The notes under the pieces are model-generated. The model ran no database searches. It had not been told where the DNA came from and worked only from the letters and a program-made list of their open reading frames with translations. Positions 5,596-44,069 of a stretch of 64,000 nt of DNA are shown piece after piece. Location of the stretch: contig OZ220691.1 in NCBI GenBank assembly GCA_965116475.1, forward strand, positions 224,001 to 288,000. The letters are read 5' to 3'. Position numbers and translations under genes: made by a program. Numbering within the stretch: the first letter of the stretch is position 1; each line of letters starts with the position of its first letter. The DNA is from Gemmatimonadota bacterium (GTDB lineage Bacteria; Gemmatimonadota; Gemmatimonadetes; Palauibacterales; Palauibacteraceae).

Positions 5596-6624
5596 TCAGC
5601 GGACGAGGAAACCGTCCCGCCACGGATCCTCCGGATCGACGAGGAACTCGTGGCGGCCCGTGACCCACGCCCGGCCACCCACCTCCGGCACGACCGCCGG
5701 ATGACCGCCGACGGTCGTCGTGTCCACGATCCGTCCGCTGAACCGGCCGCCGATGATGCTCTCGACAACGATCTCCGCGTCCCCGAGGATCTCGCCCCGG
5801 GCGCGAAGGATGGCCAGACGGCCGCTCACGGCGGTCCCGGTCGGGCTGCGGTCGAGTTCTCCGTCCGCGAAGATGCAGACGTGCCGCGAGTGGTGTGCGG
5901 CATCGGCCGCCGCGCCCGTGAACACGGTGCCGTAGAGAAAGCCGAGATCGGGATCGTCCGGATGAGAGATGTCGCCGGCGGCGGACGAAGACACCGCGCG
6001 CGTGATCCGGCGCCCCGCGTCGATGAGGTCGGCCGCGCAGCCGGGGGTGAGGGAGAGCCCGAGGGCGTCCGCATCGACGTAGGCATAGAACGCGCCGCCG
6101 AACGCGAGGTCGTACGGCACCTTGCCCAGCCCCTCGACCTCGACGGCCCGCTCCAGCGCGGGCGCGAAGGAGGGCACGTTGAGGAACCGGACCTCGCGGA
6201 CCCGTTCGCCGTCCAGGATGGCGGTGGCGCGTACGAGTCCGGCCGGCGTGTCGATCGTCACGGGCCGCTCCCTCCCCGATCCGTCGATCCAGCCGGCTTC
6301 GGCGGCGATCTTCGCCACGCCGATGATCCCGTGACCGCACATGGTCGAATAGCCCTCGTTGTGCATGAACAGGACGGAGAAGTCCGATCCGGGCCGCACG
6401 GGCGGCATCACGAGGCAGCCGTACATGTCCGCATGCCCACGCGGTTCCCACATGAGGGCGCGGCGGAGTTCGTCGTGCTCCGCCCGCGCGACGCGACGCC
6501 GTGCGAGGACCGTGTCTCCATCCAACTCCGGGAAACCCGCCACGATGACGCGGAGCGGCTCTCCCTCGGTGTGGGCATCGATCGTCTCGATGCGAAGCCA
6601 GTGTTCGGGCGCGGTCCAGATCAT
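5596..6624 (-). CDS. Proline racemase family protein, Cys/Thr type (probable trans-3-hydroxy-L-proline dehydratase)
   Basis: IDAHTEGEPLR, EPRGHADMYG, MCGH and DRSPTGT motifs; start at ATG 6624 (GAGGAG upstream). Confidence 0.85.
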   Translation of the reverse strand: MIWTAPEHWLRIETIDAHTEGEPLRVIVAGFPELDGDTVLARRRVARAEHDELRRALMWEPRGHADMYGCLVMPPVRPGSDFSVLFMHNEGYSTMCGHGIIGVAKIAAEAGWIDGSGRERPVTIDTPAGLVRATAILDGERVREVRFLNVPSFAPALERAVEVEGLGKVPYDLAFGGAFYAYVDADALGLSLTPGCAADLIDAGRRITRAVSSSAAGDISHPDDPDLGFLYGTVFTGAAADAAHHSRHVCIFADGELDRSPTGTAVSGRLAILRARGEILGDAEIVVESIIGGRFSGRIVDTTTVGGHPAVVPEVGGRAWVTGRHEFLVDPEDPWRDGFLVR

Positions 6625-6765
6625 TGTGAACTCCTCGGTGAGACGGTGGCCCCCGTCGACGGGATCGTCGTATGCTGGCGTCGCTGATCTTACGCCCCGT
6701 CGCCGAAGTCCGCTCCGGAGACGGTTCGCCGCGCCGCACGATGATCGATCGTCAGGGGAGAAGGC

Positions 6766-7386
6766 ATGAGACCGAGGGCTGTCGCCGCCGAACTCGTGGG
6801 CACGTTTGCGCTCGCGCTGTCCGCCGCGATTTCCGTCAATCACCCCGGTTTTTCTGTCCCGGCGCCGGCGATGGCGGGACTCACGCTGGGGGTCCTCGTT
6901 CACCTGGTCGGGCCTGTCTCGGGGTGCCTGCTCAACCCGGCGGTGACGATCGCCATCTGGTCGATCGGCAGGCTCGAGGCGAAGGACGCCGGCTCGTTCA
7001 TCGCGGCGCAGTTTGCGGGGGCCGGGCTGGCCCTCGCCCTCGGAAGCGTCCTGTTCGCAGATCCGGTCCCGCTCCCCGTGGACGCGTCCGCCGGCACCGG
7101 CGTGGCCGAGATGCTGGGAGCTGCATTCCTCGCCTTCACGATCGGGGCCGTCTTCATGGGCCGCATCCCCGACCGGCTGACCGGCGCCGTCATCGGCGCG
7201 GCACTCGTCGTGGGAATCTCCTGGGCCGCGCACGGATCGAACGGAGTGCTCAATCCCGCGGTGGCCCTGGGGATCGGTTCCTTCTCGTTCCCCTACGTGT
7301 GGGGACCGGTCGTCGGCGCCCTGATCGGCGCGCATCTGTCCCGGTACGTGTGCGACCCGGGCGGCCGGACGACCCGGGTCGACTAA
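6766..7386 (+). CDS. MIP/aquaporin family channel
   Basis: AELVGTF, SGCLLNPAVT and VLNPAVAL (two NPA motifs), six hydrophobic segments, YVWGP. Confidence 0.88.
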   Translation: MRPRAVAAELVGTFALALSAAISVNHPGFSVPAPAMAGLTLGVLVHLVGPVSGCLLNPAVTIAIWSIGRLEAKDAGSFIAAQFAGAGLALALGSVLFADPVPLPVDASAGTGVAEMLGAAFLAFTIGAVFMGRIPDRLTGAVIGAALVVGISWAAHGSNGVLNPAVALGIGSFSFPYVWGPVVGALIGAHLSRYVCDPGGRTTRVD

Positions 7387-33850: not shown

Positions 33851-34675
33851 ATGAGAGTATTGGAGTCGAGCAACAGAGGTGCCCGTTTGGCGGCGCTGAC
33901 CCTCGTCGCGGGAGGCATGCTGGCGGGCGCGCCGGATCCGGTCGCGGCTCAGGAGGAGACGGAGAGGGAGACGGCGGAGCTGCTCGGCCAGGTGGTCAGC
34001 GCCTCGACGGGACTCCCGATCGAAGGGGCCCGCGTGATCCTCCTGGGTTCCGGGTACGGGGCGATCACCGATGCCGAAGGCAACTTCCGCGTCCCCCGGA
34101 CCTGGGCCGGCCGAGACTCGGTCGAGGTGCGGTACATCGGATATGAGGCCGGCTATACGATCATCGACCTCGAGCCGGACCAGACCACGCGCGTCACGCT
34201 GACCCTTTCGAGCACCGTCATTCGCGTCGCGGATCTCACGGTGGAGGTGCGGCAGACCCGCCGCGCGCGGCACGTGGAGGGCTTCCTGGAACGCATGGAC
34301 AAGGGATTCGGGACCTTCTTCACGCCGCGGGACATCATCAATCGTAACCCGCGCCTGCCCAGCGATCTCCTGCGCGGGCTTCCGAACGTCTCGGTGGGCC
34401 GGATCGAATACGGGAGAGCGGAGATTTTCCTTGGAGAAGGCGCCCGGCTCGGATGTCCGCCGGCGCTTTATCTGGACGGGATGTACCAGGCGGGGATGCA
34501 ATTCGACGATCTCGAGAAGGAGGTGCTCGGCGCCGTCGAGGTCTACAGGCGGGACGTCGAGACGCCGATGGAATTCATGCGTACGGGTTCGACCTGCGGC
34601 GCGATCGTGGTCTGGACGCCGGACGGCGCGGGCTTCCTGGATTGGGCCTCGGAACTTCCCGGTCCCTTCGAATAG
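33851..34675 (+). CDS. Carboxypeptidase-regulatory-like domain + TonB-plug-like domain protein (no barrel)
   Basis: GQVVSASTGLPIEGARV..TDAEGNF..VRYIGY; DLLRGLPNV; LYLDG; VEVYR; CGAIVVWT. Confidence 0.75.
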   Translation: MRVLESSNRGARLAALTLVAGGMLAGAPDPVAAQEETERETAELLGQVVSASTGLPIEGARVILLGSGYGAITDAEGNFRVPRTWAGRDSVEVRYIGYEAGYTIIDLEPDQTTRVTLTLSSTVIRVADLTVEVRQTRRARHVEGFLERMDKGFGTFFTPRDIINRNPRLPSDLLRGLPNVSVGRIEYGRAEIFLGEGARLGCPPALYLDGMYQAGMQFDDLEKEVLGAVEVYRRDVETPMEFMRTGSTCGAIVVWTPDGAGFLDWASELPGPFE

Positions 34676-35560: not shown

Positions 35561-36729
35561 CCTTCTCCGCGGACCCGCTGCGCCTCACAACCGTCCTCAC
35601 GGACCTCGTCTCCACCAACTCGGTGAACCCGTCCCTCGTGGAGGGGGCCCCCGGCGAGGCGGAGATCGCGACACTCACGATGCGGCACCTGCTCGAGGCG
35701 AGCCTCGAAGTGACCCGGTACGAGCCGGAGGCGGGCCGGCCGAGCATCGTCGGGCGCCTCGAGGGCGCGGGGGAAGGGCCGGCGCTGATGCTGAACGCCC
35801 ACTACGACACGGTCGGCGTGGAGGGCATGGACGCGCCGTTCTCGCCGAGCATACGGGACGGTCGGCTCTACGGACGCGGCGCCTACGACATGAAAGGGGC
35901 GCTGGCCGCCTGTATCGAGGCCGCCCGCCTCCTCCGCGAATCCGAAACGCGCCTTGCCGGCGATGTCCTCGTGGCCGCGGTGGCCGACGAGGAGTACGCG
36001 AGCCTGGGCACCGCGGACCTGCTCGAACGGCGCGCGCGGGGGGAACTCGCCTTCGACGCCGCGATCGTCACCGAGCCCACATCGCTGGAGTTGTGCGTGG
36101 CCCACCGCGGATTCACGTGGGTCGAGATCGTGACGCGCGGACGCGCCGCCCACGGAAGCCGCTACGGGGACGGCATCGATGCGAACCTGCGCATGGGACG
36201 CGTCCTGCACCGGCTGGAGGCGTTCATTGAGGAGCTCCAGTCCCGGCCGGGGCACCCCCTCCTCGGCCCGCCGTCGATGCACGCGGCGCTGGTGGAGGGC
36301 GGGAGCGGGATCAGCACCTACTCCCCGCGCTGCACGCTCAAGGTCGAGCGGCGGACCGTGCCGCCCGAGACGCGGGAGTCCGTGGAGGGCGAGATCGCGG
36401 CCCTGATCGAGGATCTGCGCGCGGAGGACCCATCCCTCGAGGTCGACTGGTCGACCTTCTTCCACCGCGAGCCCTTCGAGACGACGCCGGAGGCGCCGGT
36501 CGCGGCCTGCGTATCGCGCGCCGTCCGCACCGTGTTCGGCCGGATGCCGGATGTCATCGGCGATTCCCCCTGGATGGACTCCGCCCTGACGCAGGCCGCG
36601 GGCGTCGACAGCGTCGTGATCGGCCCGCACGGCGCGGGCGCGCATGCCGACGAGGAATGGGTGGACCTCGAATCGTGTGCGCGGCTGGCCGAAATCCTCG
36701 CCGGGGCGGCCGCCGACTACTGCGCCTGA
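35557..36729 (+). CDS. M20 family ArgE/DapE-type deacylase
   Basis: LNAHYDTV, YGRGAYDMKG, ADEEYAS, TEPT, GRAAHGS, AHADEEWV. Confidence 0.92.
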   Translation: MTFSADPLRLTTVLTDLVSTNSVNPSLVEGAPGEAEIATLTMRHLLEASLEVTRYEPEAGRPSIVGRLEGAGEGPALMLNAHYDTVGVEGMDAPFSPSIRDGRLYGRGAYDMKGALAACIEAARLLRESETRLAGDVLVAAVADEEYASLGTADLLERRARGELAFDAAIVTEPTSLELCVAHRGFTWVEIVTRGRAAHGSRYGDGIDANLRMGRVLHRLEAFIEELQSRPGHPLLGPPSMHAALVEGGSGISTYSPRCTLKVERRTVPPETRESVEGEIAALIEDLRAEDPSLEVDWSTFFHREPFETTPEAPVAACVSRAVRTVFGRMPDVIGDSPWMDSALTQAAGVDSVVIGPHGAGAHADEEWVDLESCARLAEILAGAAADYCA

Positions 36730-36730
36730 T

Positions 36731-38905
36731 TCAGCGGGCGAACAGGTCCTCGACGGACAGCCCCATCCGCAGCTTCCGTTCTATCGCCCCCTGCCAACCC
36801 GCGGGACGGGCATCGAACAGGTTGTCGACGCCGGCGACCAGCCTGAGGCCTCGCCCGAGATCGACGGAGGTCTGCAGGTCGATGGCCACGAACCGCTCCT
36901 GCGTGCCGATCGTCGCGTCGCTCCCATCGGGACCCGTCCCAATGATCGGCGCGGCGCCCGTGAGATGCGCCGTGGCATCCAGGCTCAATCCGGAGTGCGC
37001 CTCGGCGGTCCACGCCGCCCGGACGCGCGCGGAGTGTGCGGCGCGCCGGTCCAGCGGGAGTCCCGAGTCGACCGCGTATGCGTCGAGGTACGCGTAGCCT
37101 GCGGCGAACTCCGCCCCACCCAGGACGGCGCGGAGGCTGAACTCGAACCCGCGCGTGACCGCTTCCGCGACGTTCCGGGGGGAGAGGATGAGGAGACCGC
37201 TCTCGGCATTCCCGACGAACCCCGGCTCGATGAGGTTCCGAATCCGGTTGGAAAAGCCCTCGACCCCGACCCGAACCGTCGCTGCCGGCTGCCAGTCCAC
37301 CCCGCCGGAGATGTTCCACGAGCGCTCCGGATCCAGTTCCGGGAACCCCTGGAGGACATAACCGCCCCCCACGTTGACGAAGTTCCATGCCAGCTCCTTG
37401 AAGGACGGCGCCCGGAAACCGCGGGCCACCGCGGCCCGCAGATGCACGTGCGCTCCGGCGCGCCGGGTCACGCCCACGGTCGGCGAGAGGTTCGAGCCCC
37501 AGCGGTCGTTCCAGGTGAGGCGGGCGCCGCCGCTCAACACGGTGCCTCCGAGACGCCAGGCGTCCTGCGCGAAGAGCGCGAGTTGCCGGTCGGCCGCACG
37601 CTCCTCGACGAGCTTGTCGGGCGACCGAATCGCGCGGCTCGCGACCTCGAGACCGACGTCGACCGAATGCCCGCCCAGGGCGGCCGAATACCCCGCGGCG
37701 CCCTTCGCGAGACGCTCCCACTGCGTGGCTTCGCCGTCATCGGCGATGGGAGCATCTCCACGGGCGCTTCGGTACAGGTGCTCGTATTCCTGAAGAAAGA
37801 GACTTCCGCTCCACGTCCCGGGACCCAGCGGCCGTCGCGCCTCGACCCACCCGGAGAATCCCGCGTTGTCGTTGAACCCCGAGAACGCGCCGCCCACCGG
37901 CCAGCGCTGCCGCTCGCGAAGGTAGGTGGCGGTGGCGCGAAGGTCCCACGCGTCCGACGCCTTGAACTGAAGGCGGGACCGGAAGTCCCAGACGCGGGCG
38001 AAGGCGCTCGGCCCCCGGTCGGCGAGCCCCGGGATCCGGTCTTCCTGGCGCCAGCCGCCCGTGATTCGATATCGGAGGCGGCCCCCGCCGCTTGCCGTCG
38101 CCTCTGCCTCGCGGCGTCCGGCACCGCCCGACAAGGCGCGCGCCCCGACCCGAAACCCCGCAGCCGGAAGCTGCGTGATGACGTTCACGACGCCGCCGAG
38201 CGCATCGGAGCCGTACAGGGACGAGAGGGGGCCCTTCACGATCTCCACCCGCTCCACGCCCGCCAGCGACATGCGGCTCAGGTCGCGGTTCTCCAGCAGC
38301 GCACCCGCGGTCGGTTGACCGTCGAGGAGGACGAGGACGCGGGCGCCGCCGACGCCCCGGATCATGAGGTTCGAGCCGACCGGAGCAGCGGCCGTCACCT
38401 GGACGCCGGGAAGCTCCGCCAGCAGCCGGTCCGCGGCCGCGACGCCGGCCGCGTCGATCTCCTCGGCTTCCACCGTCGCCATCGGCACCGCGATCTGCGA
38501 GCGGAGCCGCGGGAGCGGGCTTGCCGTGACGACGATTTCGTCGAGCGCCAGCGGGTCGCGCTCGAGCCCGATTCGCCATCCCGCCTCGATCGCATCCCGT
38601 CCGGCGAGGGTGCGGGAACGGTACCCAAGCGCCGAGACGATGACGGCGCCTCCGGAGTCCCAGCTCGCGTCGGGAACGAAGGAACCGCCAGCGTCCGTGC
38701 GCACCGCGGCTCCACGGGCGACCGAATCCGGCGAGACGCCGGCGAGGGGGTCCGGCATCCACGCCACCTCGGCGTCGGAGATCGCCGCCCCCGATTCGAG
38801 ATCGTAGACGCGCCCCTCCGACTGAGCCCAGGCCGCGTGCGGCCGGAGGATGCCGACGGCGCCGATGGCGACGCAAAGCGCCAGCCGGGCGACGCGCACC
38901 CTCAT
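36731..38905 (-). CDS. TonB-dependent receptor (iron/heme-type candidate)
   Basis: LDEIVVTAS, plug motif ERVEIVKGPLSSLYGSDALGGVVNVIT, GFRAPS, GVDNLFD; start overlaps upstream stop. Confidence 0.9.
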   Translation of the reverse strand: MRVRVARLALCVAIGAVGILRPHAAWAQSEGRVYDLESGAAISDAEVAWMPDPLAGVSPDSVARGAAVRTDAGGSFVPDASWDSGGAVIVSALGYRSRTLAGRDAIEAGWRIGLERDPLALDEIVVTASPLPRLRSQIAVPMATVEAEEIDAAGVAAADRLLAELPGVQVTAAAPVGSNLMIRGVGGARVLVLLDGQPTAGALLENRDLSRMSLAGVERVEIVKGPLSSLYGSDALGGVVNVITQLPAAGFRVGARALSGGAGRREAEATASGGGRLRYRITGGWRQEDRIPGLADRGPSAFARVWDFRSRLQFKASDAWDLRATATYLRERQRWPVGGAFSGFNDNAGFSGWVEARRPLGPGTWSGSLFLQEYEHLYRSARGDAPIADDGEATQWERLAKGAAGYSAALGGHSVDVGLEVASRAIRSPDKLVEERAADRQLALFAQDAWRLGGTVLSGGARLTWNDRWGSNLSPTVGVTRRAGAHVHLRAAVARGFRAPSFKELAWNFVNVGGGYVLQGFPELDPERSWNISGGVDWQPAATVRVGVEGFSNRIRNLIEPGFVGNAESGLLILSPRNVAEAVTRGFEFSLRAVLGGAEFAAGYAYLDAYAVDSGLPLDRRAAHSARVRAAWTAEAHSGLSLDATAHLTGAAPIIGTGPDGSDATIGTQERFVAIDLQTSVDLGRGLRLVAGVDNLFDARPAGWQGAIERKLRMGLSVEDLFAR

Positions 38906-39981
38906 CGGAGCCGCTGGAACCTCAAGGAGGGGAAGCCCGAATCCCCGGTCGCATTGTAGTAGTCGAAGAGCTGCACCTTGTAGACCTCCTCGGCCACCCG
39001 GACGAGGAAGACATTGTACGTCGGCCACATTCGATTGCTCTGCCGGATGCTGTACCAGAACGTGCCCTGCGCATCGGATGTCGTGGCCGGAAACGCGCCG
39101 GCGATCGTCGAGAGGAAGCCGGCATAATCCGGCGCGTCGTCGGCCCGGGCCAGCGCGGTGAAGTCGTCCGTCGCGTCGAGCGGGAAGGTTCCCGCCCCGC
39201 AGGCTTCGTTCACCAGTATCGTGAACTCGGGCGACGTCGCGACGTCCCAGTCGCAACCGGCGGGGTCGCGCACGATCCCGTTCGACAGGCCCACGTACAC
39301 GGGACCGCGAGTGAGATCGAGCGCGAGAGTCTCCGGCGCGCCGAGGCTGCCGCCCGGATCGTGGCGGCGGAACTGGATGGTCGCCCCCACCGGCCTCTCT
39401 CCCTGCATCGCGATGTCCACCATGCGAATCACGCCGTACCCGCGTCCCGAACCCTCGCGCAACTTCCAGGCCGCGGCGGGATTCGCGACGATCGAGCCCC
39501 GTTGGGGATCGAAGCGGAACCACGACGGGCCCGTCTCGGGCGACAGGACATCTTCGACGAATCCCGCCGCCGGGATGTCAGCGGCCGTGACCGCCTCGAA
39601 CGCCGCTTCCCCATCCTGCGGGGTCAGCGCCGCGACCTGATCGGCCGTCAGGCCCGCGTTGTTCCCCAGGCTGACCGCCGACACGGAGCCGGGGCCCGCA
39701 ACGCCCCCGTTCAACCGGACGGAAAACCTGCGGAACGCCATGTCCCACGACGTGGAACCACCGGGGTCCGCGGGGCTCTGGACCGCCCCGCCACCGGTCA
39801 GGCTCACATAGGCGAAGGAGACGGGCGAGGAAGCGTCGATCGAGATCACGCCTTCTTCGAACGTTTCCTCCTCGGGGGGCGCGGCGACTTCCGACTCGCA
39901 TCCCGCAGCGGCCGCGAGCATGAAAGGAATCGTCAGCGCGCGGAGCGGAATCCGCGGCGCGACGGGCAGGCATCGATACAT
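38902..39981 (-). CDS. HmuY-like lipoprotein, probably two HmuY-type repeats
   Basis: Lipobox AAGC; WDMAFRRFSVRLNGG..GPG, second WDVA, C-terminal VFLVR..YKVQLFDYY...SGFPSLRF. Confidence 0.78.
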   Translation of the reverse strand: MYRCLPVAPRIPLRALTIPFMLAAAAGCESEVAAPPEEETFEEGVISIDASSPVSFAYVSLTGGGAVQSPADPGGSTSWDMAFRRFSVRLNGGVAGPGSVSAVSLGNNAGLTADQVAALTPQDGEAAFEAVTAADIPAAGFVEDVLSPETGPSWFRFDPQRGSIVANPAAAWKLREGSGRGYGVIRMVDIAMQGERPVGATIQFRRHDPGGSLGAPETLALDLTRGPVYVGLSNGIVRDPAGCDWDVATSPEFTILVNEACGAGTFPLDATDDFTALARADDAPDYAGFLSTIAGAFPATTSDAQGTFWYSIRQSNRMWPTYNVFLVRVAEEVYKVQLFDYYNATGDSGFPSLRFQRLR

Positions 39982-40021
39982 GTAAACATCTCCGTGTCGA
40001 GATCCAGCGCCGTTCGGGGGT

Positions 40022-41026
40022 TCATGGCCGCTCGCGGACGGGTGACGGCGCGCGCCTTCCCGCGGCAGTCGTACAGGGTCCGAGCGGTGAGACGAAACCG
40101 TTGGCGCAGAAGCGCGCCCTGGCCTTCGCCGCAATCCAGTCGGTGATGAGGGGATGGGGCAGGAAGCCTTCGGTGGCGGTGTATTCGAGACCCTCCAGCA
40201 CGTCGGCGTAGGGCCCGAAGCCTGACACGCGGTACGGGATCACGAGGACGTGCCGGTGACGCTCACCCATTCCGACCACCAGCGTCCTGATCCGCGCCTC
40301 TGCCTCCTCCCTCTCGCTGGCCCAGTCTTCTCTCAGCGTGCCGACGTGGACCTCCGCGTAGCCGTCGTCCCGCAGCGCACCGGCTGCGTCCTCCATGGAG
40401 CGGAGCACCCGCCGGTCCTCTCCTTCATCTCCCATGCCATGGGCGAGCAGCAGTACGCCGCTCTCGGCGGCAGTTACACCGGCGGTCGCGGCCCGGTCGG
40501 CCAGAATACGAGCGGCCTGGCCGGATCCTCCCAGTCCCTCGGTCTCCAGCAGGATCCGGCTGCCGTTCGCGAGCGGCTCGAGTTCCGTCCCGCTCACCAT
40601 TCGGTGTCCCACCATCGCGCGCTTGGGCGGGTCCGGACGGAGCCCGAGCAGGAACTCCGTCGGGTGCAGGAACGACGCCCCGGACACGAACAGCCTCACG
40701 ACGGCCACCGTGTTCACATCCTCGTCCGCCAGGGCGTCGAGGGCGGTCTGCATCGTCTCCGGGTTGGCCATGCCCAGCGCCAGGGACACGGGGATCTTCT
40801 CGCGGAGCGGCCGCACGGCGTCCTCGACCCGTCCGTTCCACTCCTCCCCACCCCCGTGCGCCATGACGAGCATCCCGGGCCGCGGCTCCGGGGCAGGCGC
40901 AACTCCCGCGCGTTCCGGACCGGAACCCCGTTCGACGTCCGGCTGCGGTCCCCCTGCGGACGCGCAGCCGCTCAGCACCCAGAACAATCCAAGGGCGGCG
41001 ACAGGCGCCCCCGACCCATTCGACAT
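40022..41026 (-). CDS. CbiX/SirB-like (class II chelatase) lipoprotein
   Basis: Two AHG motifs (LVMAHGG, LLLAHGMG), VVRLFVS, LPHPLITDWI; lipobox LSGC. Confidence 0.75.
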   Translation of the reverse strand: MSNGSGAPVAALGLFWVLSGCASAGGPQPDVERGSGPERAGVAPAPEPRPGMLVMAHGGGEEWNGRVEDAVRPLREKIPVSLALGMANPETMQTALDALADEDVNTVAVVRLFVSGASFLHPTEFLLGLRPDPPKRAMVGHRMVSGTELEPLANGSRILLETEGLGGSGQAARILADRAATAGVTAAESGVLLLAHGMGDEGEDRRVLRSMEDAAGALRDDGYAEVHVGTLREDWASEREEAEARIRTLVVGMGERHRHVLVIPYRVSGFGPYADVLEGLEYTATEGFLPHPLITDWIAAKARARFCANGFVSPLGPCTTAAGRRAPSPVRERP

Positions 41027-41048
41027 CGACTCGACCCCGGCATGAAGT

Positions 41049-41068
41049 GATAATGAGAATCATTCTCA
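41049..41068. promoter_or_regulatory. Fur box upstream of the chelatase-HmuY-TBDR operon
   Basis: GATAATGAGAATCATTCTC, 17/19 identical to GATAATGATAATCATTATC; perfect 7-1-7 TGAGAAT-C-ATTCTCA; AT-rich island 22 nt before the start. Confidence 0.88.
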
Positions 41069-41115
41069 ACTATAATAGTCAGATGAAGATGCGCGTCACT
41101 TGAGGGGAGTGCAAG

Positions 41116-42048
41116 CTATGATGCCGGGCGCTGGCCGGGGCCGCCCGTCCGGGCCGCGCCGGTCCATTCGAGGCTCCGGTCCCAGAGTTCGCGGGCGAGA
41201 TCCTCGTCGTAGGCCTGGGCCGTCGCGGCGACCTCGGAGTCCACTTTGAAATACCGCCCGGTGACCTCGTCGCGGGCGGGGTCCCCCACGAGCCGCATCA
41301 CGGCCCGGCCGCCGACTTCGGGCTTCGCCATCAGGCCCTTGGCCGCGTTCAGAAGCAGGCCCAGCGCGCTCCGGTTCTTCCGCCAGATCTGTGTACGGAG
41401 GACGCCGGGGTGGACGGCGTTCGCGGTGATCCCGCGGGCGCTCCAGCGGCGCACCGATTCGAAGGTGAAGAGGGCGTTGGCCAGCTTCGTATCGCCGTAG
41501 GCCTGGAAGCCGCCCTTCCAGGCGTCGCCGCGGACGATGGCCTCGAGGGGAGCGCGGCGCAGGTCCCCGTTTCGGTGTGCTTCGGAGCTCACGTTGACGA
41601 TCCGGCCGCGCCCGGCCGCGAGCGGCGCGAGGAGCCGATGGGTGAGGAGGAAATGGCCGAGGTGGTTCGTCGCGAACGTGATCTCGAAGCCATCGGACGT
41701 GATCTCGCGCCGATGGAGCCAGACGCCGGCGTTGTTCACGAGGATGTCGATCGCGGGAGCGTGGGCGGCAAGGCGGTCGGCCAGAGCACGAACATCGTCC
41801 TGCAACGAGAGGTCGGCGAGTTCGAGGCGGACATCCGTGTCCGCCGCCGCGTCCGCCGCGGCCCGCGCTTGCCGCACGTCGGCAAGCGCCGACTCCCCCC
41901 GCTCGCGGCTGCGGCACACCAGGGTCACGTCAGCGCCGGCCCGGGCGAGGAGTTCGGCGGCGGACTTCCCGACGCCCGAGTTCGCGCCGGTGACGACGGC
42001 GATCTGCCCTTTCAGGCCGAGGTCCGTTCCATCCGGGGTCTCCGTCAT
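41116..42048 (-). CDS. SDR family oxidoreductase (retinol dehydrogenase-like)
   Basis: VTGANSGVG, LVNNAG, TNHLGHFLL, YGDTK, VHPG. Confidence 0.92.
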   Translation of the reverse strand: MTETPDGTDLGLKGQIAVVTGANSGVGKSAAELLARAGADVTLVCRSRERGESALADVRQARAAADAAADTDVRLELADLSLQDDVRALADRLAAHAPAIDILVNNAGVWLHRREITSDGFEITFATNHLGHFLLTHRLLAPLAAGRGRIVNVSSEAHRNGDLRRAPLEAIVRGDAWKGGFQAYGDTKLANALFTFESVRRWSARGITANAVHPGVLRTQIWRKNRSALGLLLNAAKGLMAKPEVGGRAVMRLVGDPARDEVTGRYFKVDSEVAATAQAYDEDLARELWDRSLEWTGAARTGGPGQRPAS

Positions 42049-44069
42049 CGGGCCGGGAGGGCGAACGCCTGCAGCTTCGAATCGACCTGTCCGTTGGCGG
42101 AGGTGGCGACGACGACGAACTGGCGCCCGGACCGGGTGCGGTACGTCATCGGGTTGCCGCGCCCCAGCCCTTCACCCAGGTCCCCTCGCCACAGCGTGCT
42201 TCCATCGCGGACGTCCATGGCCTCGATCCACGGCGTGCCACCCGCCAGGAAGACGATCCCGCCCGCCGTCGCCAGCGGCCCCGACGTCGTGCCGTGGCTC
42301 TGCGGCGTGCCTCCCATGGGCGGGAGGTCCAGGCCCGCAAGCGCCGGGTGCTCGCGGATCGCGGAGTCGTCCCCGAACGGCCGCTGCCACAGGTGGTCCC
42401 CCGTATTCAGGTCGATCGCCGTGATCGTGCCGTAGGGCGGCTTGAGGATCGGAAGCCCGCCGGCCACCGAGAGGGTGCTCGCGAAGTTCGGGAGGTAATC
42501 CGCGTCCCCCGCCCCCGGCTCCGCCTCGGCGACGCGCGCGAGGAAGGGGTCGTCATACGCCTTCACGAACATGTGGCCGCTCTCGGGGTCGATGGCCGCG
42601 CCGCCCCACCCCGCCCCGCCGATGAGGCCCGGCATCATGATCGTCCCCTCGACGGAGGGCGGCGTGAAGATCGGACCGGTCCGGTGGCGGCGGAACACTT
42701 CCAGCGCCTCCGCGCGCAGCGCCGGCGTGAAATCGATGAGGTCGTCCTCGGTGATCCCCTGGCGGGAGAACGGCGCGGGCCGCGTCGGGAACGGCTGGGT
42801 CGGCCACGGCACCTCTCCCGGAACCGTGCTCTCCGGCACCGGCCGTTCCTCGACCGGCCATACCGGCTCGCCGGTTTCGCGGTCCAGCACGTACGTGAAC
42901 GCCGTCTTCCCCACCGCCACGACCGCGTCGATCTCGCGCCCTCCGACCTCGATCGTCACGAGGCCGGGCGGCGCCGGCAGGTCGTAGTCCCACAGGCCGT
43001 GGTGAACGGTCTGGAAGTGCCACACGCGCTCGCCCGTCCGCGCGTCCAGGCACACGAGCGACTCCGCGAACAGGTTCTGCCCCCGCCGGTGTCCGCCGTA
43101 GAAGTCGTTGTTCGGGGTGGAGACGGGCAGGTAGAGGAGCCCCCGCTCCGGGTCCAGCGAGAAGGGAGCCCACACGTTCGCCGACCCCGTGTAGGACCAG
43201 GACTCGTCCTCCCACGTCTCGACCCCGTACTCCCCCTCCTTCGGGATGGTGTGGAAGGTCCAGCGCAGTGCGCCGGTGCGCGCATCGAAGGCCTGGACAT
43301 CGCCGGGCGGGTTGTGGCGGTAGATCCGGTTGTCCGGGACGCCGCTGCCCACGATGACGATGTCCTCGTAGACGACAGCGGGAGAGGTGTTGGAGATGTG
43401 AAGCCGGTTCGCGTCCCAGGCGAGGCCCTCCGTCAGGTCGACCTCGCCTCCGTCCCCGAAACCGGGGATCGGCTCGCCGGTGGCGGCGTCGAGCGCGATC
43501 AGCCGCCAGCGGGAATTGAGGAAGATCCGGCGCTCGCTTCCGTCGCTCCACTCCGCGATCCCGCGGTGGCAGAAGCGGCAGCCGCGGTGGAGGTTCCCCC
43601 ACTCCCACGCTTTGGGGTCGTAGCTCCAGAACTCCTCTCCCGTCTCCGCGTCCAGCGCGACGACCCGGCTGTAGGGGGTCGAGAGCCACATCGTGTCGTT
43701 GATGACGATCGGCGTCGCCTCGAAGGCGCCCGGCGCCACGCGTTCGCCCTGGATGGGGCTCGCCGCGTCGGGAATCGGCTCTTCCCCCGTCTCCCAGACC
43801 CACGCCACGTCGAGCTGGGCGACGTTCGAGCGGTCGATGTCCGTGAGGGAGGAATACTTGCGGCCGCCCGGGTCGCCGCCGTACACCGGCCAGTCGTCGC
43901 CCGCATACGCCGTCGGCGGCCGCGAGCTTTCGCCGGCATCCCCATCGGCTCCGTCGCCGCCGCAACCCGCGAGCGCCACGCCGAATCCAAGCACAAGCCA
44001 CCCAAGGGCCAGCTTCGCGGGGCCAGGTGCAGGGGCGACGTGGGGCATCACGAACCGTCGTCGGGGCAT
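42045..44069 (-). CDS. PQQ-dependent dehydrogenase (glucose/quinate type), lipoprotein
   Basis: DWPVYGGD..G.KYS.L..I...NV, ATPIVI, repeated ALDA.TG..W, HHGLWDYD, GRQFVVVA; lipobox LAGC. Confidence 0.9.
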   Translation of the reverse strand: MPRRRFVMPHVAPAPGPAKLALGWLVLGFGVALAGCGGDGADGDAGESSRPPTAYAGDDWPVYGGDPGGRKYSSLTDIDRSNVAQLDVAWVWETGEEPIPDAASPIQGERVAPGAFEATPIVINDTMWLSTPYSRVVALDAETGEEFWSYDPKAWEWGNLHRGCRFCHRGIAEWSDGSERRIFLNSRWRLIALDAATGEPIPGFGDGGEVDLTEGLAWDANRLHISNTSPAVVYEDIVIVGSGVPDNRIYRHNPPGDVQAFDARTGALRWTFHTIPKEGEYGVETWEDESWSYTGSANVWAPFSLDPERGLLYLPVSTPNNDFYGGHRRGQNLFAESLVCLDARTGERVWHFQTVHHGLWDYDLPAPPGLVTIEVGGREIDAVVAVGKTAFTYVLDRETGEPVWPVEERPVPESTVPGEVPWPTQPFPTRPAPFSRQGITEDDLIDFTPALRAEALEVFRRHRTGPIFTPPSVEGTIMMPGLIGGAGWGGAAIDPESGHMFVKAYDDPFLARVAEAEPGAGDADYLPNFASTLSVAGGLPILKPPYGTITAIDLNTGDHLWQRPFGDDSAIREHPALAGLDLPPMGGTPQSHGTTSGPLATAGGIVFLAGGTPWIEAMDVRDGSTLWRGDLGEGLGRGNPMTYRTRSGRQFVVVATSANGQVDSKLQAFALPAR

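Follow-up and report, generated by a model that had tools for sequence, protein, structure and literature searches.

The window analysed here, a 64,000-nt stretch of a Gemmatimonadota genome (contig OZ220691.1, positions 224,001 to 288,000), carries an operon of three envelope genes behind an iron-type operator. The genome is a single contig of 3,620,669 bp, 69.4% G+C and 96.3% complete. The three genes follow one another in the same orientation on the minus strand. The first, cbiX-like (40022-41026), encodes a 334-aa exported lipoprotein with a predicted class II chelatase fold of CbiX/SirB type. The second, hmuY-like (38902-39981), follows after 40 nt and encodes a long HmuY-family lipoprotein of 359 aa. 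The third (36731-38905) encodes a TonB-dependent receptor of 724 aa with signal peptide, N-terminal extension, plug and barrel, and its ATG overlaps the hmuY-like stop codon as ATGA. A first-pass annotation had described a near-consensus Fur box followed by three co-oriented genes, and the gene coordinates agree with this arrangement.

The operator occupies 41049..41068, with no strand assigned, and is composed of a 19-mer at 41049-41067 and a perfect 7-1-7 palindrome, TGAGAATcATTCTCA, at 41054-41068. Compared with the 19-bp E. coli-type Fur consensus, the 19-mer shows 2 mismatches on the plus strand (17/19 matches) and 3 on the minus strand. No match to the consensus arose in 100 shuffles of the window, the 19-mer is the sole site with at most 3 mismatches in the whole genome, and the palindrome has the top 7-1-7 score of the genome. 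The box is situated 22 nt 5′ of the first ATG and directly 3′ of a promoter-like site on the minus strand (41072..41099; -35 GTGACG, 16-nt spacer, -10 TATTAT; 9/12 consensus positions). Three promoter-like sites, called by consensus match only, fall between 36500 and 41300, where shuffles give 0.2 on average; each of the three is located in the A+T-rich intergenic stretch before the operon. Thus, the Fur box of the first-pass annotation is not only confirmed but is the best site of both window and genome, and it is conserved in related loci (see below). As a consensus match placed at a promoter-like site, it would be a putative operator controlling the operon.

Four Fur-family genes are present in the genome. 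The next-best Fur-like sites are found ahead of feoB, of sufC-sufB and of a lipoprotein/PepSY-like pair, feoB being named from a family search and the other two labels from the first residues of the proteins. At feoB, two Fur-like boxes, TGAGAACCAGTCTCA and CGATAATCGTTATCG, are placed 15-50 nt upstream (L085:1369-1403, genome 2775235-2775269; feoB start L085:1417). The CGATAATCGTTATCG motif occurs again ahead of the apparent sufC and sufB at genome position 1716840.

To see the operator in a wider setting, we scanned one genome per species; 314 stretches encode a relative of the chelatase-like protein and the best 79 loci were kept. A Fur-like 7-1-7 palindrome (at least 12 of 14 positions, within -350..+60 of the chelatase-like gene) precedes this gene in 49 of the 79 loci, that is 25/30 of those with the same gene order as the window and 24/49 of the others, whereas 842,593 background positions in these loci hold 12 such sites. 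This same-loci count serves as the control, the degenerate 7-1-7 pattern having been widened after variants had been seen. In Rhodothermales a variant palindrome, TTAGAyTnArTCTAA, is found in three loci ahead of the cbiX-like gene and again ahead of a receptor gene some 2.5 kb from it (L015:5841 and 9392; L038:5912 and 9377; L039:5911 and 9370), and in a fourth it precedes the receptor gene heading the cluster (L068:3178). This variant probably represents the operator in its local form.

The encoded proteins

The first-pass annotation had called the chelatase-like protein a class II chelatase homologue. At the level of sequence this link is weak. The protein scores 18.3 bits with Pfam CbiX (PF01903), under the 22-bit cut-off, a Pfam CbiX search of the genome at E <= 0.001 misses it too, Pfam CbiK gives no match, and its sole NCBIfam match is CfbA with 13 bits. 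Sequence and profile matches to solved chelatases are not significant, the best (E 0.18) being an unrelated design and CbiX 3lyh following with E 0.45. Of the 22 longer relatives scanned, 17 exceed the Pfam CbiX threshold, the best reaching 80.7 bits, so that the sequence link of the window protein to CbiX is a transitive one.

At the level of predicted structure the same description stands firmly. The model (predicted local distance difference test, pLDDT, 87.6; predicted template modelling score, pTM, 0.81; built on 42 sequences) finds SirB 5zt7_A as best VIA match (Z 18.5, root-mean-square deviation, rmsd, 3.1 Å over 231 residues), followed by the coproporphyrin ferrochelatase LmCpfC (CpfC/HemH; Z 17.2), CbiX 4ccs (Z 16.9), the periplasmic CbiK(P) 2xvz (Z 16.4, rmsd 3.1 Å, 223 residues) and FetB 9b86 (Z 15.5, rmsd 3.4 Å, 218 residues, 11% identity). 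CbiK falls in the same Z range (15.5-18.5), the matches span model residues 46-312, and Foldseek gives a probability of 1.00 for the class II chelatase fold; periplasmic binding proteins are matched by Foldseek as well, at about 1e-4. Moreover, the N- and C-terminal halves of the protein align with each other (hhalign, E 3.2e-5), which reveals an internal two-fold repeat. The model therefore gives strong grounds to place the protein in the class II chelatase superfamily, with its two similar alpha/beta domains whose parallel four-stranded sheets border a central cleft.

Several residues are invariant in the 42 sequences, namely H57, G85-M86-A87, H196, L231-R-E-D-W235, Y273 and H291, and H121 as well as the Cys pair C307/C318 close to the C-terminus are at least 90% conserved. 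In the model, H57, G85-M86-A87 and H121 of domain 1 and H196, L231-R-E-D-W235 and Y273 of domain 2 are found at the cleft-facing ends of strands. The metal-binding residues of SirB/CbiX are His10 after strand 1 and, in SirB, Glu43 after strand 2 and His76 after strand 3. In the window protein H57 ends strand E50-56 and aligns with the AHGS motif of CbiX 3lyh in the weak match mentioned above (E 0.45), the invariant G85-M86 stands after strand 2 where the same weak alignment puts Met-Glu of 3lyh, and H121 follows strand E106-112. The corresponding loops of the C-domain carry H196, E233/D234 and Y273.

The lipobox LSGC noted at first is indeed present within the signal peptide (Cys21, nt 40964-40975). 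A word-indexed search gave 558 homologues at E <= 0.001 among 8000 candidates scored, and an exhaustive search 705 cluster representatives (75 with E <= 1e-30). Of 120 homologues listed, 96 are N-terminally complete; by a crude script rather than SignalP or LipoP, 81 of these 96 carry a lipobox-like Cys, 13 a hydrophobic leader without Cys and 2 neither. Predicted export is thus a trait of the chelatase-like family.

This bears directly on the most ordinary interpretation, a cytoplasmic sirohydrochlorin chelatase working for siroheme or B12 and lying beside uptake genes by coincidence. Some database names ('sirohydrochlorin chelatase') and the fold, nearest to SirB, would agree with it. Yet the signal peptide with its lipobox and the Cys pair are conserved in the family, the downstream genes are translationally coupled, synteny and operator are conserved, the protein stays under the Pfam CbiX cut-off, and the genome searches by named Pfam families found neither a siroheme-dependent enzyme nor a CobN pathway. 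We consider this interpretation barely credible.

Some exported relatives display other architectures. Thirteen of about 550-600 aa (P0178, P0184, P0187, P0188, P0192, P0193, P0195, P0196, P0198, P0202, P0209, P0211 and P0214) match the window protein via their C-terminal half, and most of them give a Pfam CbiX match in the N-terminal half; they look like tandem chelatase-like units. Most of these N-terminal halves show APDRGF in place of the AHGG of the window family. Two further forms are each known from a single representative: P0169 is an exported chelatase-like unit with an AhpC/TSA-redoxin (thioredoxin-like) domain added at the C-terminus, a fusion that hints at redox chemistry in the envelope, and in P0220 such a unit is fused to a WD40 propeller.

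The second protein of the operon is, by profile and by fold, a HmuY-family lipoprotein. Its lipobox AAGC (Cys28) is encoded at nt 39898-39909, and 114 of 115 N-terminally complete homologues have a lipobox Cys. It scores 49 bits with Pfam HmuY (PF14064) against a cut-off of 27; NCBIfam gives no match. A profile of 34 homologues aligns with P. gingivalis HmuY 3h8t at E 1.9e-14, over the N- and C-terminal parts only. Between these ends lies an insert of about 215 residues (profile positions 104-319) without counterpart in P. gingivalis HmuY. All Foldseek matches with E <= 0.001 are HmuY-family entries (HmuY, BfrB, Tfo, BVU_2192 and BF2707), HmuY 3h8t being the best with 1.6e-7; the model itself is moderate (pLDDT 70.4, residues 267-317 low) and too weak for conclusions on the ligand.

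The His134/His166 pair that holds haem is particular to P. gingivalis HmuY, and other members of the family use Met, also in pairs. The window protein has M192, at least 90% conserved among the homologues. Non-canonical ligands had been suggested in the first-pass annotation; the presumed ligand region of this protein is taken up by the insert, but the suggestion is less unusual than it seemed, given the Met of other HmuY proteins.

A second HmuY-family gene is encoded elsewhere in the genome (L093:1462-2106, genome 3557558-3558202, minus strand); it is short (214 aa, hydrophobic N-terminal anchor) and has no adjacent receptor gene in a rough gene listing. At least one HmuY-family match occurs in 16/17 genomes of the genus, mostly short single matches, and the long HmuY of the operon in 4/17. 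Outside the genus, a long HmuY with 58% identity is named in one source for Gaopeijia maritima.

The receptor matches Pfam Plug with 79.5 bits and the barrel with 135 bits. In NCBIfam both TonB-B12 (141 bits) and TonB-hemin (123.6 bits, cut-off 316.85) remain far under their cut-offs, and the nearest solved relatives are CirA, BtuB, FepA and PhuR. In classical haem receptors of the HemR/HmuR/ShuA type a conserved His stands between a FRAP and an NPNL box, and the plug has another. The two boxes of the window receptor are FRAP (residue 497) and FPEL (521), and the stretch between them is free of His, exactly as first described. Among 31 orthologues NPNL is replaced by FPEL or FPDL and the position between the boxes is occupied by N, H, S, R, K or Q; it is therefore variable, some orthologues having a His there (WHF). 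The invariant His residues of the receptor family are 376, 413 and 624.

Before its plug the receptor has an N-terminal extension of the SusC/RagA-type kind (window 38545-38824, residues ~28-120), to which TIGR04056 aligns from residue 52 and 9gbc_A from residue 31. Encoded apart from it, at 33851-34675, is a 274-aa protein that has a CarboxypepD_reg domain.

Gene order and distribution

The synteny survey proposed with the first-pass annotation was carried out on the 79 loci. The order chelatase-like, HmuY, receptor is conserved in 30 of them, and it is rearranged to receptor, short HmuY, chelatase-like in two Rhodothermales, Rubrivirga litoralis (L066) and a Rhodothermus metagenome-assembled genome (L068). 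In other Rhodothermales loci (L015, L038 and, by tblastn, L039) the receptor gene is found about 2.5 kb downstream of the chelatase-like gene. Two loci (L053 and L080) show the succession response regulator, receptor, membrane protein, chelatase-like gene; the regulator is of LuxR type, and the predicted membrane protein of about 240 aa (L053:5068-5790, L080:5057-5773) has no Pfam match at E <= 1e-4. In the remaining loci examined no obvious partner gene was seen, the neighbours scanned being 61 proteins from 24 of the 31 gene-called non-matching loci.

The window operon itself is bounded downstream by a convergent M20 peptidase gene. On its 5′ side lie a co-oriented short-chain dehydrogenase gene and a pyrroloquinoline quinone (PQQ) dehydrogenase gene, and the intergenic space ahead of the cbiX-like gene measures 89 nt. 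The same flanks, PQQ dehydrogenase/short-chain dehydrogenase and M20 peptidase, surround the chelatase-like gene in three Palauibacter loci (L011, L012 and L062; gene 6001-6970) which have lost hmuY and the receptor gene. Similarly, both genes are missing in L013 (6001-6961), where the chelatase-like gene is split by a frameshift and a perfect Fur-like box is kept. A run labelled as metatranscriptome, X2, contains contigs (records 2, 5, 6 and 8) that are 94-99% alike over parts of all three window genes; contigs in an RNA library are no proof of transcription, of its level or of an iron response, and the parts left uncovered carry no meaning. Record 6 ends at 40035 in letters resembling the window just past the receptor stop codon, which suggests the same deletion form as in L011, L012, L062 and L013.

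The loci in which the chelatase-like gene stands alone lend themselves to another explanation, in which its product would be a periplasmic metal-binding protein or metallochaperone for free metal made under iron starvation, the receptor and the HmuY-like protein importing some other iron source. It might, for example, hand Fe2+ or another divalent metal on to a transporter of the inner membrane. The Fur-like box is kept in the 24 of 49 loci without the same-order hmuY and receptor genes, and in L011, L012 and L062. The fold resembles periplasmic binding proteins in the Foldseek comparison, the conserved His and Glu sites are metal sites in chelatases, and the specificity of the receptor is settled neither by family scores nor by solved relatives. 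On the other hand, the chelatase-like gene is linked repeatedly, and in rearranged order, specifically with genes of the HmuY family, whose solved members bind haem or porphyrin, and the whole two-domain cleft of tetrapyrrole enzymes has been kept (Z 16-18 to chelatases). All in all we hold a free-metal function to be unlikely.

Among the sampled Gemmatimonadota genomes, 52 of 301 have a chelatase-like match at E <= 1e-20 (a count that includes G000 and the unpublished G097), and in the genus of the window 9 of 15. Haem oxygenase (PF01126) is found in 30/301 of these genomes and in 4/52 of those with a chelatase-like match. All four have distant matches (E 1e-28 to 1e-36), and the enzyme is found in 0/25 genomes whose match reaches E <= 1e-80. 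An avoidance of haem oxygenase by carriers of the chelatase-like gene was considered and rejected as evidence, since the carrier families are nearly all without the enzyme (f1 0/22, f6 1/47); its rarity in carriers is due to kinship.

A possible route from haem to iron

In whole-genome searches, at 96.3% completeness, we found no CobN/HmuS family member, no haem oxygenase PF01126, no HemS, no DyP, no other CbiX and no siroheme-dependent NIR_SIR enzyme; these negatives cover the named Pfam families, and haem degraders of IsdG, HugZ and ChuW type were not searched for. Since no other CbiX, CobN or NIR_SIR was found, a biosynthetic role as sirohydrochlorin chelatase has no context here. The genome does encode ferrochelatase, so that the porphyrin itself would not be needed, and FeoB. 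Among the operon genes neither an ATP-binding cassette (ABC) transporter nor a haem oxygenase appears in the gene listing or the Pfam scan, as had been remarked of this operon before, and for haem oxygenase the PF01126 search extends the remark to the genome.

There is only one FecCD permease, and it lies just downstream of a cobalamin riboswitch. Intact haem is therefore left without an obvious way into the cytoplasm. Two divergent cobalamin riboswitches are in fact present, at L097:8763-8897 (-) and L097:9961-10096 (+), with 67 and 53 bits, one preceding the FecCD permease gene and the other a 773-aa open reading frame, from which it follows that B12 uptake is provided for elsewhere. No riboswitch was found before the operon in 36000-42500, where the search gave one sub-threshold antisense-RNA match (E 0.15). 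Uptake of B12 or another corrinoid by the operon was rejected on these two grounds.

From all this we conclude that haem or a similar metallo-tetrapyrrole is most likely the source from which the module obtains iron, with a chelatase-fold lipoprotein that acts after the receptor or alongside it. We suppose that iron scarcity would lift Fur repression of the three genes, that the long HmuY-family lipoprotein would capture the ligand at the cell surface and that the TonB-dependent receptor would carry it across the outer membrane. The chelatase-fold lipoprotein could then take the ligand into its two-domain cleft, where H57, M86 and H121 of the N-domain and H196, E233/D234 and Y273 of the C-domain would hold it. 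Most likely, reverse chelation would release Fe2+ there and leave the ring intact, and Fe2+ would enter the cytoplasm through FeoB, whose gene also has Fur-like boxes. What we infer in this scheme is which ligand is bound, in what order it is handed over, on which face of the outer membrane the chelatase-like protein sits and, above all, that de-chelation takes place.

To the complete sequence of events, in which haem or a metallo-tetrapyrrole is captured, imported and stripped of its iron by the exported chelatase-like protein, with Fe2+ taken in via FeoB, we give a probability of roughly 0.45. The closest characterized exported counterpart is FetB/IhtB, which in a 2026 paper (PMC13065792) inserted Co and Mn into a protoporphyrin analogue but neither Fe nor Ni, and for which no reverse activity was seen with haemin. 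Other points also weigh against stripping of haem. HmuS, the established case, requires a reductant and a membrane fraction (PMC12583661), yet the window operon encodes no reductase. Tetrapyrrole binding and catalysis are attributed to the chelatase-like family by analogy. The family scores of the receptor do not separate haem receptors from those for B12 or siderophores, and among the 31 orthologues no His is conserved in the plug or between FRAP and FPEL. In the HmuY-like protein the presumed ligand region is replaced by the long insert; its one His over the whole length, H207, was correctly noticed at first and is not conserved, nor is any other His of the family. The HmuY and receptor genes are missing from the fetched flanks in 45/79 loci, many of which keep the Fur-like box, so that the chelatase-like protein does not strictly need this receptor. 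The anatomy of the operon, the export signal and the operator described in the first-pass annotation are borne out, and the synteny, the conservation of the operator and the failure to find alternative haem genes strengthen them; the reverse chelation put forward there is a supposition, weakened by the FetB results (PMC13065792).

The same results on FetB bring in two other explanations. In one of them the uptake module is the same and the chelatase-like lipoprotein would be a periplasmic or surface carrier or store of haem, iron being released by another enzyme or haem being used intact. Exported CbiK-type relatives are reported to bind metalated porphyrins, as D. vulgaris CbiK(P), which is of the same CbiK family as FetB, is able to do and as holo-FetB indicates (PMC13065792), and IhtB has been called a CbiK-like haem-binding lipoprotein and putative reverse ferrochelatase (PMC12094164). 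The Met, His and Tyr conserved on the cleft side are typical axial ligands of haem, and a carrier would agree with the missing reverse activity of FetB. However, the cargo would have no visible destination, as no haem-type ABC importer was found and the sole FecCD permease is under riboswitch control for B12. The haem-degrading families searched were not found either, and the cell makes its own haem with ferrochelatase. We regard a pure carrier as rather unlikely.

In the other, chelation would run forward outside the cytoplasm and put a metal such as Mn or Co into an imported or released porphyrin, for detoxification or to make a bioactive metalloporphyrin. The Co and Mn insertion by FetB would fit, as would the great reduction of Mn-protoporphyrin IX (Mn-PPIX) upon fetB deletion (PMC13065792), and H57 and probably H121 are placed at the positions of the metal-binding His pair of CbiX/SirB. 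Against this, Fur-type repression across two phyla is better explained by iron acquisition than by pigment production, forward chelation yields no iron, and the family is CbiX/SirB-like rather than CbiK-like (Z 18.5 to SirB, 15.5 to FetB). Forward chelation seems to us quite improbable.

Ring-sparing removal of iron from haem was controversial until the demonstration with HmuS in 2025 (PMC12583661), and the older proposal of an exported class II chelatase, IhtB/FetB, as a de-chelatase is so far unconfirmed. The family described here offers a cleaner test case, having a strong and conserved iron-type operator, a link with HmuY and receptor genes in two phyla and no other haem-iron route found. 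Cultured carriers exist, Rubrivirga litoralis and Rhodothermus marinus, the latter with adjacent cbiX and hmuY genes mentioned in passing in PMC6987092. It is possible, though doubtful, that haem de-chelatases evolved a second time, independently, in the exported CbiX/SirB-like proteins, as class II chelatases reversed in the envelope. With Fur-controlled TonB-dependent receptors and FeoB, these would then make up a ring-sparing path from haem to iron that is widespread among Gemmatimonadota, Rhodothermales and other phyla without haem oxygenase or HmuS. If so, both classes of chelatase would have been recruited for the reverse reaction, and a haem-iron pathway would be added to marine and host-associated bacteria in which its proteins are now annotated as 'sirohydrochlorin chelatase' or 'hypothetical'. 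Should the protein only carry haem or bind metal, it would still be a putative core member of the Fur regulon in these phyla that has gone unrecognised.

Relation to known systems

The likeness to HmuY/HmuR and to IhtB pointed out in the first-pass annotation is borne out by the HmuY profile and fold matches and by the structural match to 9b86. One close parallel is the P. gingivalis Iht system (IhtA with IhtB/FetB, 9B86), in which, as in the window, an exported class II chelatase lipoprotein is encoded beside a TonB-dependent receptor. FetB is however CbiK-type, with 37% identity to Salmonella CbiK (PMC13065792), whereas the window protein is nearest to SirB/CbiX. Iht includes the ABC transporter IhtCDE and lacks HmuY, and the window operon has a HmuY and no ABC transporter. 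Moreover, according to a review (PMC12094164), starvation for iron or haem leaves the transcription of iht unchanged, while the window operon stands behind a near-perfect and conserved Fur box.

The Bacteroidota hmu system likewise combines a HmuY-family lipoprotein with a TonB-dependent receptor. Its chelatase homologue, HmuS, acts on imported haem: a class I chelatase homologue, it turns haem into protoporphyrin IX when NADH and a membrane fraction are supplied, FeoB being proposed as importer of Fe2+ (PMC12583661). HmuS is very large, membrane-anchored and class I (CobN-like), and no CobN-family gene was found in the window genome. HmuTUV are encoded in hmu and have no genes in the window operon, and P. 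gingivalis HmuY is devoid of the ~215-residue insert of the 359-aa window protein. The invariant G-M-A and H-G at the cleft of the window family may, as a lead, offer a parallel with Met-79 and His-254 at the head/neck haem site of HmuS.

Among the other class II chelatases, CbiK(P) of Desulfovibrio vulgaris (2XVX/2XVZ) is exported like the window protein; it is soluble and CbiK-type, where the window protein is a CbiX/SirB-like lipoprotein. It is not known to occur together with HmuY or a Fur box. The cytoplasmic SirB and CbiX enzymes are the best structural match, and the AHG after strand 1 aligns with AHGS of CbiX 3lyh. They share 13-17% identity with the window protein, which differs in being exported, placed behind an iron-type operator and encoded with uptake genes. 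Similarly, the window receptor departs from the classical haem receptors in keeping FRAP and neither NPNL nor the conserved His.

Apart from the passing mention of Rhodothermus marinus (PMC6987092), no description of this chelatase-like family or of its operon was found in the literature searched. Class II chelatases that are exported and encoded next to a TonB receptor are a known kind of arrangement, as is the association of HmuY, receptor and de-chelatase. Relative to that literature, what is new here is their combination in one operon, the membership of its chelatase-like protein in a CbiX/SirB-like family, the length of its HmuY and the tight control of Fur type suggested by the operator.

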